Shown one piece after another: positions 31,569 to 63,996 of a DNA stretch of 64,000 nt (the first letter of the stretch is position 1; the number at the start of each line of letters is the position of its first letter). Under the pieces are notes generated by a model, which saw nothing but the letters and a program-made list of their open reading frames with translations, was not told the DNA's origin and searched no databases. A program made the translations under genes and the position numbers. This stretch comes from a virus (lineage: Duplodnaviria > Caudoviricetes): positions 32,001-96,000 of the IMG/VR virus record IMGVR_UViG_2731957577_000001; one strand, given 5' to 3'.

Positions 31569-32629
31569 ACACGTTCCCAGACGTATGGGTTGAATGTGGG
31601 GCGGACCTAGACAATCCCAAGTTTCCGTTCACGCGAAAACATTATTATCCAGCCGGCCAGACGGATGAATTTCGCCAGCAATACGGAAACTGCGGCGTCT
31701 ATGAGACCGTGATGAAGTACGTTTCACCGGTATGGGTTCAAGACTCCAAGGGCCGGATGATCATCAATACGCGCGAGTCCCTGAAGTACGGTGACTTCTA
31801 TATGGACTTTGACACCAAACTCGAAAGCGATGAGGATTTCGAGAAGGTACGCGCGGATGTCAAAAGTGCGCTCCGGTATCTGAAGGTCATCCTGTCCATT
31901 GATCCCAGCCAGGTGTCTTTGTACTTCTCCGGCCATAAGGGGATTCATCTGACGGTGGACGCGCGCGTTTTGGGGATTCAGCCCCACTTGGCGCTCAACC
32001 AGATTTACAAGGAGATTGCCTCAGACATCGCGCAGTATTGCAAGAACAATACCTTGGATCTCAAAGTCTATGACGACAAGCGGATGTTCCGCATGGTCAA
32101 CTCTTTACACAAGAAGAGCGGGCGCTATAAGGTGCCGATTTCCCATGCCGAATTCGAGCGCTTGAGCCTCTCGCAAATTCGGGATTTGGCGATACAACCG
32201 AGATACGTGTTACCGCCGATGCCGCAAGTCAATCCAAGGGTCAAACATTCCATCCAGCGGGTCATCGACAAGTGGACACAGCGAATCAATCAACGCAAGG
32301 AATTTGAAGGTCGCTTTAAAAAGCTGGAGCAGCTCCCGGTTTGTATCCAAACGATGCTGAGTGAGAAGAACTTCCGGGAGACCGTGGATGAACGAAACAA
32401 CAGCGCCACAGCGCTCACGAGCTTCTTTATGCAACAGGGGATTGAACGCGAAGAAACCTTGGCACGGATGAAGCAGTGGAGCGAGGAACGCTGTCTGCCG
32501 CCGCTTCCAGCCCGCGACATCGAGATCATTGTCAACTCGGTCTACAACGGTGGATATCGCTACGGATGCGAGAGTTTCCGGCGTTTGAGTGGCGTATGTG
32601 ATCGAGACCACTGTCCTCTCTTTGCATGA
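31565..32629 (+). CDS. Archaeo-eukaryotic primase (AEP) with C-terminal PriCT/PriL-like Cys domain
   Basis: MDFD (motif I), FSGHKGIH (motif II), D...RMFRMVNS; C-terminal ERNNSATAL and LPVC...YGC...VC...HCP. Confidence 0.85.
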   Translation: MNTFPDVWVECGADLDNPKFPFTRKHYYPAGQTDEFRQQYGNCGVYETVMKYVSPVWVQDSKGRMIINTRESLKYGDFYMDFDTKLESDEDFEKVRADVKSALRYLKVILSIDPSQVSLYFSGHKGIHLTVDARVLGIQPHLALNQIYKEIASDIAQYCKNNTLDLKVYDDKRMFRMVNSLHKKSGRYKVPISHAEFERLSLSQIRDLAIQPRYVLPPMPQVNPRVKHSIQRVIDKWTQRINQRKEFEGRFKKLEQLPVCIQTMLSEKNFRETVDERNNSATALTSFFMQQGIEREETLARMKQWSEERCLPPLPARDIEIIVNSVYNGGYRYGCESFRRLSGVCDRDHCPLFA

Positions 32630-60260: not shown

Positions 60261-60560
60261 CTAACCGATATGCCTTTGGAATACATATTGGATCTGAATC
60301 CCAATGGACTTGATCCCCTGAATCAATATGGGATCATGGGATAGACAACTCGGAGACACACAAACAATCGTCGATACGGTTCCATCCTGAATATCATTCA
60401 AGAGAGCTTGGAATCCTGGACAATCTAGAGTATCACCAGAAGCCCCACAGTCGACGTACTCTTGATAAACAGCGCGTCCGACATGGTCCCGACACGCCTT
60501 CAGTTGGCGTTCGATCTCTGCCATATCCATGAGATCGGTCCGGGCATAGATACCAATCAA
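60261..60560 (-). CDS. Stand-alone serine-recombinase N-terminal-domain protein, probably inactive
   Basis: IGIYARTD (vs YARVS), RQLKACR, YVDCGASG..LDCPGFQALL; catalytic Ser and DRLxR absent. Confidence 0.65.
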   Translation of the reverse strand: MIGIYARTDLMDMAEIERQLKACRDHVGRAVYQEYVDCGASGDTLDCPGFQALLNDIQDGTVSTIVCVSPSCLSHDPILIQGIKSIGIQIQYVFQRHIG

Positions 60561-61297: not shown

Positions 61298-61326
61298 TTG
61301 TCAGCAACTTGTGTCAGACTTATAAT
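61298..61326 (+). promoter_or_regulatory. SigA promoter of putative antitoxin RNA A
   Basis: TTGTCA-17-TATAAT. Confidence 0.75.
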
Positions 61327-61332
61327 GAGTGT

Positions 61333-61473
61333 TGAAGACGGCAATCATAAAAAAAGGCCCCACCAGCAGCCACTGGTGAGGCCTGGCGGGCCGACAAGGC
61401 CTACCCATTGCGCCGAGAGCAAAGCAATCTGTCAGCGGATGGTCGACTGGCCCGAGTCGACCATCATTCATTT
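61333..61473 (+). ncRNA. Putative antisense (antitoxin) RNA A, ~140 nt
   Basis: Lies between the promoter above and the 11-bp hairpin GATGGTCGACT/AGTCGACCATC (61438-61465) plus ATTCATTT; complementary to the 3' UTR of peptide A mRNA. Confidence 0.55.
61349..61383 (-). terminator. Terminator of peptide A mRNA
   Basis: Minus strand GGCCTCACCAG-TGGCTG-CTGGTGGGGCC-TTTTTTT. Confidence 0.8.
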
Positions 61474-61559
61474 ATGATGAACTCAAAGCTGACAGCCAGG
61501 AGCCAGAGGTGTCCAGCTATAGGTACTGGGACGACTCTGATCCGAAGCACTCGCTTCAT
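61464..61559 (-). CDS. Putative type I toxin peptide A (31 aa, MKRVLRIRVVPVPIAGHLWLLAVSFEFIINE)
   Basis: GAGGAGGTG RBS sequestered by a leader stem; own extended -10 (TGCTATACT, 61689-61697 minus) and terminator; paralog at 62134. Confidence 0.7.
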   Translation of the reverse strand: MKRVLRIRVVPVPIAGHLWLLAVSFEFIINE

Positions 61560-61733
61560 CGGCACCACCTCCTCGGCTCACACCTAACGCAACAGGTAGA
61601 GCCGAGTCGGCCCACATCTGTGTGAGCCATAGGAGGTGGCTGGGCCTACAACGGATAGATTCATCTTACGATGAGTCCCGCCACTTCAAGTATAGCATCT
61701 ATATAACCCCATTTCCTAGAAGGAATTCTCAAT

Positions 61734-61979
61734 ATGAGCCGGATTGTCGAACGACCCATTCAATCCATCCAAACCAATGACCGAGGCGAACCGGTGGCAT
61801 GGCTGGATCGCGGTGTGACCCACCGAGTTGTTGAGATTCTCGATGCCTGGAGAGAGGCTGGAAATTGGTGGGAAGACGAACCGAATCGAGCCATGTATCG
61901 TGTGCTTACATCGGAGAACTACGTGTATGATCTCGAAGAATCCGAAGGCAAATGGAAGGTCTATAAAGTGTGGGATTAG
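61734..61979 (+). CDS. DUF6504-like protein
   Basis: P.AW...G..HRV.EILD.W.E.G.WW......YRV......YDL.....W.V.KVWD pattern. Confidence 0.65.
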   Translation: MSRIVERPIQSIQTNDRGEPVAWLDRGVTHRVVEILDAWREAGNWWEDEPNRAMYRVLTSENYVYDLEESEGKWKVYKVWD

Positions 61980-62133
61980 GCCGCCCATTTGATTTCTATT
62001 CTAGATCATGGGCGTGCTATACTAGAAATGACCCATCTCTATAGATGGCCAACGTCTTGTTGTTGGCTGACACCCCCTCGGCTGCTGTGGGACGGTGCGG
62101 CGCCTTGTCGGAGGGCCGAGGGGGTGAGAGTTG

Positions 62134-62226
62134 ATGCGGTGGTTTCGCATTCGCGTGACGCTTTTACCGACCGGCCATGCGTTTCTGCCTTGGATCGTTC
62201 GTGTAGAGCTTACCATAAAGAAGTGA
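62134..62226 (+). CDS. Putative type I toxin peptide B (30 aa, MRWFRIRVTLLPTGHAFLPWIVRVELTIKK)
   Basis: GAGGGGGTG RBS paired with CACCCCCTCGGC (62071-62082); extended -10 TGCTATACT at 62015-62023; paralog of peptide A. Confidence 0.7.
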   Translation: MRWFRIRVTLLPTGHAFLPWIVRVELTIKK

Positions 62227-62331
62227 CGACCGGTTCTCAGCCAACCGGTCGTCGTTAGCGACTCACCATCAACTCCGACAAGCGTTGCACCGTCCGTCGG
62301 GACCCTGCCAGTCAGCCTCTGGCGGGGTCTC
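62216..62331 (-). ncRNA. Putative antisense (antitoxin) RNA B, ~115 nt
   Basis: Minus-strand TTGTTA-18-TATAAT at 62367-62338; ends at 11-bp hairpin 62225-62253 followed by ACTTCTTT on minus. Confidence 0.55.
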
Positions 62332-62340
62332 ATTCTTATT
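62299..62340 (+). terminator. Terminator of peptide B mRNA
   Basis: GGGACCCTGCCAG-loop-CTGGCGGGGTCTC then ATTCTTATT. Confidence 0.65.
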
Positions 62341-62452
62341 ATAGTCAATGTGCGTCTCATGTAACAACATGCTGAAACGAATCCAAAGGTCAATGAACTT
62401 ACTCTCCCAGAGGTCGACCTCTCTAAAAAGCATGATTCATAAAATCATGATT

Positions 62453-63369: not shown

Positions 63370-63996
63370 GTGCTCGACCACAAAGACACGGGCAAGTATA
63401 CATACTGGATGAAGCACTTTGAGAACGGAGAACTGATCGAGGTCCCTGAGTCGAAGATAGAAAACATCTCCCTTGACACGCTCGACAACGGACCGGTCAT
63501 CCCCTTGCATCAGGGTGGATTCGCACAGATCCCTGCCTATTGGCTCTACTTCTGGTGTCCCTTTCTCTCGGTTCACGCTCAGTCTATATTTACGCACTTG
63601 ATCGCCCATACATACATAGACAAGAACTGGTGCCAGATCAAGCGTGAAACGCTCGCTGCAGAATGCAACATGAGCCTGTCCGCCTTCAACAAACACTTCG
63701 AGCAACTTGAACGATACAAGCTGGCTTGGCGCATCGAGGTGAGAACCCCGGATGGAAGCAACCTGCCGAACATTTACATCACGAGGAGGCAAATGCCCCT
63801 CATCCCGCAGGAACTTTACGATCAATTATCGGACCGGCTCAAGGACATGCATGATCAGTACATCGAGCGCATGGCCAAAAGCGGCATGCTGTACCTGGAT
63901 GTGGAGTATGAACGTCCACTTCCCGAACCCAGCCCACCGCCGAAAAGACGCGGCAGACCAAAAGGCTCAAAGAACAAACCCAAGGCGTCTGAATAG
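63370..63996 (+). CDS. Winged-HTH replication-initiator-like protein with C-terminal AT-hook
   Basis: GFAQIP...LSVHAQSIFTHL...CQIKRETLAAECNMS...LERYKL...PNIY; tail PPKRRGRPKGSKNKPK. Confidence 0.65.
   Translation: MLDHKDTGKYTYWMKHFENGELIEVPESKIENISLDTLDNGPVIPLHQGGFAQIPAYWLYFWCPFLSVHAQSIFTHLIAHTYIDKNWCQIKRETLAAECNMSLSAFNKHFEQLERYKLAWRIEVRTPDGSNLPNIYITRRQMPLIPQELYDQLSDRLKDMHDQYIERMAKSGMLYLDVEYERPLPEPSPPPKRRGRPKGSKNKPKASE

Follow-up and report, generated by a model that had tools for sequence, protein, structure and literature searches.

Paralogous peptides of about 30 residues with a predicted beta-hairpin fold in candidate type I toxin-antitoxin cassettes of Alicyclobacillaceae

We analyzed two short open reading frames (ORFs) that lie close together in a 64,000-nucleotide (nt) stretch of DNA, positions 32,001 to 96,000 of the IMG/VR virus record IMGVR_UViG_2731957577_000001 (the window; coordinates without a contig name are window positions). 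The results showed that both ORFs, which are unannotated, are genuine genes and paralogs, and that they belong to a family of peptides of 27-33 residues that had not been described before. In the ORF list, copy A, of the A-type subfamily, encodes 31 amino acids (aa) at 61464-61559 on the minus strand, and copy B, of the B-type subfamily, encodes 30 aa at 62134-62226 on the plus strand, in both cases with the stop codon included. An earlier reading of the sequence (the original prediction) had given these coordinates and translations, and both were borne out by the ORF check. A full type I toxin-antitoxin layout is predicted at both cassettes. The reading that we favor, to which we give a probability of roughly 0.4, is that these are type I toxin-antitoxin cassettes whose toxin, a beta-hairpin peptide, self-associates and thereby acts on the cytoplasmic membrane. 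On computational support the peptides would form a new family of toxins whose predicted fold is unusual, and for which we infer transcription of both RNAs, toxicity, a membrane target and oligomerization.

A motif scan of this Alicyclobacillus genome, translated in six frames, showed a third paralog, copy C, with the same RNA layout (G000:C61:10429-10530, minus strand), and six-frame searches with profile hidden Markov models showed intact relatives in seven other Alicyclobacillaceae genomes (A. herbarius, A. kakegawensis, A. cellulosilyticus, G027, G031, G066, and G062). The A-type subfamily consists of copy A and the copies of G066, G062, G027, and G031, and the B-type subfamily consists of copy B, copy C, and the copies of A. 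cellulosilyticus, A. herbarius, and A. kakegawensis. The family alignment has ten rows for the ten loci, with seven distinct peptides, all from one bacterial family, and the product is unnamed at all ten loci.

A class-wide sample of 400 other genomes added the copy of G062 within Alicyclobacillaceae and no member outside that family, and a phylum-wide sample of 400 more genomes held no family member. No further members were found in the JGI metagenome contigs, in the IMG/VR viral contigs or, by tblastn, in the PLSDB plasmids. Among 1.84 billion protein representatives there was one match, a 31-aa product without a name that is the A. cellulosilyticus peptide with one extra N-terminal Met. The PDB sequences contained no family member and showed no similarity between the peptides and any solved chain. 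The models of Pfam-A, NCBIfam, PHROGs, and PADLOC gave zero matches to the peptides at permissive thresholds, with none at E <= 10 in Pfam for four peptides. The peptide family matches no curated model, and the RNA logic is of an already known kind. Within the genomes and databases searched, the family has so far been seen only in Alicyclobacillaceae. Weak peptide-profile matches in G315, G323, G228, G130, G017, G054, G041, G022, G018, and G020 were rejected because they lay within or antisense to larger genes, or were without the RNA layout.

The paralogy of copies A and B, which had been proposed from residues common to the two peptides, held in a profile-profile comparison of five B-type with three A-type peptides (P = 1.5e-4, 27 columns, 41% identity), and the whole RNA layout is common to both. 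A BLAST search of their own genome with locus A as the query did not recover locus B. Each of the two copies has a Shine-Dalgarno (SD) site 8-9 nt 5' of the ATG, and 9 of the 10 loci keep this frame open and have an SD site and a start codon for it. Between B-type pairs the sense frame showed 70 synonymous and 64 replacement changes, and the replacements had a mean BLOSUM62 score of +0.39, whereas the best competing frame, which is antisense, showed 43 synonymous and 85 replacement changes with a mean score of -1.29. The antisense frame has third codon positions in common with the sense frame and so inherits some synonymous-looking change. A central Gly-His is invariant across the ten loci despite varied codons (GGA, GGC, GGG or GGT, then CAC or CAT), and a Glu is likewise invariant, with the codon GAG in 10 of 10 loci. 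The peptide frame is under purifying selection and its replacements are conservative. The original prediction had tied its own standing to codon-level conservation of three elements, RIRV, Gly-His and Glu; such conservation is present for Gly-His and Glu but only in part for RIRV.

Cassette B is overlapped along its whole length by an antisense ORF of 123 aa (62022-62393, minus strand), and orthologous loci have similar ORFs of 103-343 aa. We rejected this ORF as a real gene, and we regard the long antisense ORFs as artefacts because of the substitution pattern given above, with its radical replacements, because the frame is closed at 25 aa in G027/G031, and because there is no conserved start. 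The frame is closed at 59-78 aa in copy A. Gene callers could annotate such spurious ORFs instead of the peptide genes.

The MAFFT alignment of the two loci showed a common order of parts, namely an extended -10 element, a small 5' stem-loop, a long hairpin that pairs the SD site with an anti-SD sequence, the ORF, a hairpin abutting the stop codon, the 3' untranslated region (3'UTR), and a strong intrinsic terminator. Promoters and terminators on both strands were far above the shuffle expectation, with nine terminator-like sites in 1.3 kilobases (kb) vs 0.7 expected from shuffles. The extended -10 TGCTATACT, a conserved block in the A/B DNA alignment, lies at 61689-61697 (minus strand) for the copy A mRNA and at 62015-62023 (plus strand) for the copy B mRNA. 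A TGnTAnAnT-like element stands at the same place in most loci, and G027/G031 read CGTATAAT. The intrinsic terminators of the two mRNAs, each with a 13-pair stem, lie at 61347-61384 (minus strand, followed by TTTTTTT) for copy A and at 62299-62340 (plus strand, followed by a T-rich tail) for copy B.

In the 5'UTR hairpin of copy A (61565-61639, minus strand) the anti-SD at 61632-61639 pairs with the SD at 61565-61572, both in the consensus fold and in the minimum free energy (MFE) structure of the full mRNA. In that of copy B (62071-62127, plus strand) the anti-SD at 62071-62082 pairs with the SD at 62116-62127 in the consensus fold. The consensus fold also showed compensatory changes in this helix between the subfamilies (GGAGG:CCTCC vs GGGGG:CCCCC), and the full-length mRNA folds, set against shuffles, had z = -7.98 for copy A and z = -6.88 for copy B. 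A sequestered SD site is a cis-element that marks type I systems and is predicted here, together with the small protein-coding toxin gene, usually of <60 aa, which is present as ORFs of 27-33 aa.

A stretch of 22-25 nt in the 3'UTR is complementary to the apical part of the hairpin in the same mRNA, and this complementarity is cognate-specific across loci. By RNAduplex the two segments are 61588-61613 and 61388-61412 (minus strand) in copy A, and 62087-62112 and 62274-62295 (plus strand) in copy B, where the 3'UTR segment TCCGACAAGCGTTGCACCGTCC is a motif kept in the B-type loci. The cognate 5'-3' pairs gave -66.4 kcal/mol for copy A and -56.9 kcal/mol for copy B, and the values were -32 to -40 kcal/mol for non-cognate pairs set against that of copy A and -28 to -40 kcal/mol across subfamilies. 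The 5'-3' helix of copy B was found in both the MFE and the centroid structure of the full mRNA.

On the opposite strand, a putative antisense promoter faces copy A (TTGTCA-17-TATAAT, 61298-61326, plus strand, 11/12 matches), and the promoter scan gave another facing copy B (TTGTTA-18-TATAAT, 62338-62367, minus strand). The antisense -10 is present in 10 of 10 loci, 111-137 nt beyond the stop codon, and the putative convergent promoter and terminator of an antisense RNA over the 3'UTR are kept at all of them. The stop-abutting hairpin of copy A (61438-61465) is terminator-like on the plus strand, with an 11-pair stem and then ATTCATTTAT, and that of copy B (62225-62253) is terminator-like on the minus strand, with an 11-pair stem and then ACTTCTTTAT; these hairpins are the predicted ends of the antisense RNAs. 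From the convergent promoters and the stop-abutting terminators we therefore predict antisense RNAs of ~105-135 nt that are fully complementary to the toxin 3'UTR, at ~61333-61470 (plus strand) for copy A and ~62331-62222 (minus strand) for copy B. Because the 5' apical segment is complementary to the 3'UTR, the predicted antisense RNA has about the same sequence as that segment, and the two would be competitors in pairing with the 3'UTR.

A covariance model of the 5'UTR recovered every intact locus except that of G062, and three decayed copies in addition. Two of these, L066 (G011:C1:3203321-3203439) and L067 (G029:C46:70835-70949), keep the 5'UTR hairpin with an ORF down to 8 aa, and L069 (G002:C22:27426-27530) keeps the hairpin with a frameshift and with most of the ORF and the 3'UTR deleted. 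Two species of one genus have the same cassette remnant at the same place. The A-type copy of G062 (L053, G062:C1:51205-51300) has an intact ORF body, 3'UTR, terminator, and antisense -10. Its 5'UTR is without SD and anti-SD, and its start is ambiguous, the candidates being ATT and, three codons further upstream, ATG; this copy may be silenced. At L018/L025 a LexA (Cheo) box that is close to perfect, CAAACATATGTTCG, was seen ~138 nt upstream of the toxin start and over the -35 region. Among the loci it is confined to G027/G031, where, as in A. kakegawensis, a gene for a Y-family polymerase follows directly downstream of the cassette, and SOS control of some copies is possible.

The peptides have a common architecture around the Gly-His, which lies at the center in every case, between arms of 12-15 and 13-16 residues, and indels are confined to the termini or to positions beside the turn. 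The alignment columns run hydrophobic-polar-hydrophobic-polar-hydrophobic on the N-terminal arm and again on the C-terminal arm, and between the arms lies a hydrophobic, aromatic, Pro-rich block around the Gly-His. A Pro near the turn is nearly invariant, with one Pro position being H or N in G066 and G062. About 60% of residues are hydrophobic or aromatic, a Trp or Phe stands beside the turn, the N-terminus is basic, and no family member has a cysteine. The RIRV that had been noted in copies A and B is not invariant (RIRV, RIRL, RINV, KISV, and KLQV were found); because these residues vary among loci, only the pattern of basic, aliphatic, polar and aliphatic residues, [RK]-[IL]-x-[VL], holds. 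The term cationic likewise does not fit the whole family, because B-type peptides carry a net charge of +5, and those of the A-type, with their acidic C-termini, no more than +1 to +3.

The proposed alternation of polar and hydrophobic residues on either side of the turn was supported at the level of the family, where the averaged hydrophobicity showed a period-2 moment on both arms (p = 0.018, within-arm shuffles) and a helical moment of p = 0.86. The beta moment of single B-type peptides was also significant (p = 0.012-0.027), but that of single A-type peptides was not (p = 0.17-0.55). The second part of the same claim, that an uninterrupted hydrophobic helix is lacking, was confirmed by our values, since the best 19-residue Kyte-Doolittle mean was 1.06-1.61. 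The sums of the best 19-mer on the Hessa biological scale were +5.8 to +10.9 kcal/mol. These predictions indicate that no member has a credible transmembrane helix.

AlphaFold2 was run with the family alignment as input, separately for the A-type and the B-type. The A-type was modeled with strands at residues 2-15 and 18-30 and with the Gly-His as a two-residue turn, and the best predicted local distance difference test score (pLDDT) was 82.7, with all five models at 74-83. The B-type was modeled with strands at residues 3-12 and 20-29 joined by a seven-residue loop, with a best pLDDT of 71.5 and the other four models at 55-61. The central idea of the original prediction, a strand-turn-strand peptide, is supported by the hairpins predicted in both subfamilies, the conserved period-2 pattern, and the central Gly-His. 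It had also been said that a helical prediction would speak against this idea; none was obtained, and both best models gave strands. With ten rows and a 30-residue peptide, the AlphaFold2 hairpin is suggestive and not proof. Gly as the first loop residue suits a tight beta-turn.

The modeled hairpin would have a charged open end, with the N-terminal Arg/Lys and the invariant Glu, and with C-termini that are acidic in the A-type and basic in the B-type. Its closed tip, of ~seven residue pairs, would be hydrophobic and contain Pro, Trp or Phe, with its apex occupied by the invariant His. In several of the possible hairpin registers, a conserved basic residue faces the invariant Glu. Searches with the hairpin model returned only generic two-stranded ribbons, with E >= 6 in Foldseek and Z <= 2.3 in VIA-align, and the ESM Atlas gave no match by features or by shape. 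Generic ribbons are the expectation for a bare hairpin and say nothing on function.

In the mechanism that we propose, the full-length mRNA would be translationally silent and the antisense RNA would keep it silent or destroy it. Loss of the element or of the antisense RNA would then allow the peptide to be made and to fold as a beta-hairpin round the Gly-His turn, with Arg/Lys and Glu forming the charged open end and Pro, Trp, Phe, Leu, and Val the hydrophobic closed tip. The cytoplasmic membrane would be the most likely target; this leaning comes from the hydrophobic and aromatic content, the Trp/Phe by the turn, and the basic N-terminus. The tip would insert from the inside while the basic end grips anionic lipid head groups, and hairpins would associate edge-to-edge, disturbing or permeabilizing the bilayer, with growth arrest or post-segregational killing as the outcome. 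A much more specific proposal is that this is the first type I toxin family to act as a membrane beta-hairpin, in which hairpins of ~30 residues enter tip-first from the cytoplasm and join by their edges to form a small beta-sheet pore. The apical, invariant His would be protonated at the acidic outer face, in an acidophile with a steep pH gradient, and would lock the hairpin across the membrane, and the Glu would pair with the conserved Arg/Lys at the cytoplasmic end. We consider this detailed proposal quite unlikely as a whole.

Several observations weigh against a membrane-active beta-hairpin. The confidence of four of the five B-type models was low, and with a shallow alignment and a length of 30 residues AlphaFold2 can err. 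The polar/hydrophobic alternation spans only ~five residues per arm and lacks significance in single A-type peptides, and the net charge is not conserved among family members (+1 to +5). The 21-residue stretch V9-I29 of copy A is borderline on the Kyte-Doolittle scale (1.61). Action on the membrane would also need oligomers, because not all backbone hydrogen bonds of a single hairpin can be satisfied within a bilayer. Finally, the helical Fst/Ldr toxins likewise have Pro and Gly in the middle of the sequence (PMC8309996).

Membrane-associated type I toxins are known as hydrophobic peptides with an alpha-helical transmembrane domain (PMC8309996), and such a domain was not found in this family by Kyte-Doolittle, Hessa, helical moment or AlphaFold2, all of which are predictions. 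All characterized ones are alpha-helical (PMC8309996). The main rival explanation is that the cassettes are indeed type I modules but that the peptide is a kinked transmembrane or interfacial alpha-helix in the membrane, like Fst, SprA1, and Lpt. We hold this to be somewhat unlikely. On such an explanation the hairpin would be an artefact, produced by a shallow alignment together with a high content of Val, Ile, and Phe. Membrane helices tolerate beta-branched residues, the confidence of the B-type models is modest, and the copy A stretch reaches the mean of 1.61 over 21 residues. Several known toxins carry Pro and Gly within the helix, as PxxxG(C) or APxxxG, and these residues are essential to the toxicity of Fst and Lpt (PMC8309996); G027/G031 read P-V-P-V-G, which is a PxxxG. 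However, PxxxG occurs only in these two; the B-type has PxG, and copy A, G066, and G062 have PxxG or PxxxxG. The hydrophobic stretch is only 15-16 residues long in most members and contains two Pro, the Gly and the invariant His before R/N-x-E. The unfavorable Hessa sums, the lack of helical amphipathicity (p = 0.86), and the strands in the best AlphaFold2 model of both types also argue against a helix, and the models Fst_toxin and others of Pfam and NCBIfam were without a match even at E <= 10.

A soluble beta-hairpin that spares the membrane and poisons a cytoplasmic protein by adding a strand to an exposed sheet edge is an unlikely explanation. In its favor are the predicted hairpin and the conservation of period-2 hydrophobicity. 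A peptide directed purely at lipid would not usually require a His and a Glu that never vary, and in the A-type the Pro residues at i and i+2 of one strand would close off one edge of the sheet, with the other edge still open. MciZ, a 40-aa inhibitor that takes up beta structure on its target, is a precedent (PMC10730256), and cytosolic type I toxins exist in RalR and SymE (PMC8309996). On the other hand, the peptides are very hydrophobic and rich in Trp/Phe, which favors lipid or aggregation, the neighboring genes (DUF6504, UDG-family, rep, and Y-family polymerases) point to no target, and neither MciZ nor any solved chain resembles the peptides in sequence. It is very unlikely that the ORF is translated into an inactive peptide, with translation only remodeling the RNA, or that the cassette is a plasmid copy-control or countertranscript element. 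A rep gene does lie ~1 kb from the cassettes, and the only Rfam match was ctRNA_pGA1 at 61343-61400 (minus strand), but this match (22.7 bits vs a gathering score of 45, E = 0.15) falls well short of the threshold and does not extend beyond the terminator hairpin. Moreover, cassettes occur without a rep gene nearby at C61 and in G027, the terminators that follow the ORF leave no downstream gene in the same transcript, and amino-acid identity is kept through synonymous change, which a mere ribosome track would not need. We regard it as extremely improbable that the frames are chance openings in a structured non-coding RNA or that the 123-aa antisense ORF is the real gene. Long antisense ORFs do lie over B-type cassettes in several genomes, and the 43/85 ratio of the antisense frame, with its shared third codon positions, could be counted in their favor; but an antisense gene would have to encode through terminators and hairpins, with radical replacements, early closure in G027/G031 and copy A, and no conserved start, while the SD site, start and stop of the sense frame are at conserved places. 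Also rejected were a leaderless bacteriocin, for which there is no transporter or immunity gene and which the antisense layout speaks against; the leader peptide of a downstream gene, in view of the terminators after the ORF; and a plasmid countertranscript, in view of the conserved peptide and of the cassettes without a rep gene.

The favored reading, a type I cassette with a hairpin toxin, can be set beside known systems. In the Bacillus subtilis prophage systems the toxin mRNA and the antisense RNA are convergent and their 3' ends overlap, to which we liken the layout found here. To our knowledge, no extensive 5'-3' pairing within the mRNA has been described for these prophage systems. They are similar to the present family in belonging to Bacillota and in having a small toxin ORF (30-59 aa) on a mobile element (PMC10730256), and in their proposed role, which is maintenance of the element. 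They differ in that the prophage toxins are hydrophobic membrane peptides and have a predicted or shown transmembrane helix (PMC8309996), and none is predicted here. The hok/sok system is a plasmid addiction system, and our cassettes are on plasmid-like DNA. Both hok/sok of plasmid R1 and aapA1/IsoA1 of Helicobacter pylori have an inactive mRNA with a sequestered SD site and a long-distance 5'-3' interaction, and the layout predicted here is alike. Their antisense RNA, however, pairs with the 5' leader, whereas ours is predicted to cover the 3'UTR, and Hok and AapA1 are helical membrane peptides with no sequence similarity to this family. Cis-encoded elements that sequester the ribosome-binding site have been noted for type I systems (PMC8309996). 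The layout may be viewed as the 3' overlap of the B. subtilis prophage systems joined to a hok-like or aapA1-like closed mRNA (PMC10730256; PMC8309996).

Toxins of the Fst family are transmembrane alpha-helices by nuclear magnetic resonance with PxxxG(C), a spacing that is not kept here, and unlike Fst/Ldr the present peptides have an invariant His after the Gly and a hydrophobic run that is too short and too polar. The transcripts of Fst/RNAII are convergent and have a common bidirectional terminator. Fst/RNAII (par of pAD1), SprA1, and Lpt nevertheless resemble this family in their length of ~30 aa, the Pro/Gly near the middle of the hydrophobic part (PMC8309996), the charged termini, and their location on plasmids. 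The Fst model PF13955 had no match in the peptides and none in the whole genome at E <= 10. The predicted shape is like that of the cationic beta-hairpin antimicrobial peptides protegrin, tachyplesin, arenicin, and thanatin, which are two-stranded antiparallel hairpins with a basic and a hydrophobic surface; peptides of the protegrin type act on membranes via oligomers, and thanatin acts by strand addition to a target. These are secreted animal peptides of 17-21 residues locked by disulfides, whereas the present family is without Cys, would be made inside the cell that it would harm, and is strongly cationic only in the B-type. MciZ of B. subtilis, which takes up beta structure on binding FtsZ (PMC10730256), is also a small intracellular peptide of a spore-forming member of Bacillota and is a precedent for strand addition, but it is not in a toxin/antisense cassette, has no sequence similarity to this family, and is far less hydrophobic.

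The two cassettes are placed between a UDG-family gene and a replication initiator gene. The initiator homolog lies at 63370-63996 (plus strand; phrog_26369, E = 1e-22), 1.1 kb from copy B. Between the cassettes is an 81-aa DUF6504 gene (61734-61979, plus strand; Pfam E = 3e-7), divergent from copy A and upstream of copy B. At 60261-60560 (minus strand) lies a 99-aa ORF whose match to the resolvase domain (PF00239, E = 3.5e-8) is limited to the N-terminal part of that domain; it is probably a truncated serine recombinase. Cassettes are also found away from any rep gene (C61 and G027), and a Y-family polymerase gene adjoins the cassette in G027 and A. kakegawensis. The 198-kb contig C7 is uniformly 52.4% GC vs ~60% in the other large contigs, and because of this difference it is probably a large plasmid or similar element; contig C61 is 46.6% GC. 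The cassette DNA is probably mobile, plasmid-like and of low GC, and a stabilizing role through post-segregational killing, by analogy with hok/sok and par, is a natural guess.

The hypothesis is directly testable, and the observation is solid while the modeled fold rests on a shallow alignment. Copies A and B, adjacent and 41% identical, offer a ready-made comparison, and the family may supply a minimal, disulfide-free natural beta-hairpin, as predicted, from thermoacidophiles as a simple model for studies of peptides with membranes or with targets. The predicted fold differs from that of all characterized membrane type I toxins, which are alpha-helical without exception (PMC8309996). Searches for toxins, the classic hydrophobicity-based ones included, presuppose a hydrophobic alpha-helix (PMC8309996; PMC2887945). 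If the favored reading is true, the type I RNA scaffold can carry another kind of toxin, and helix-based screens would miss such genes.

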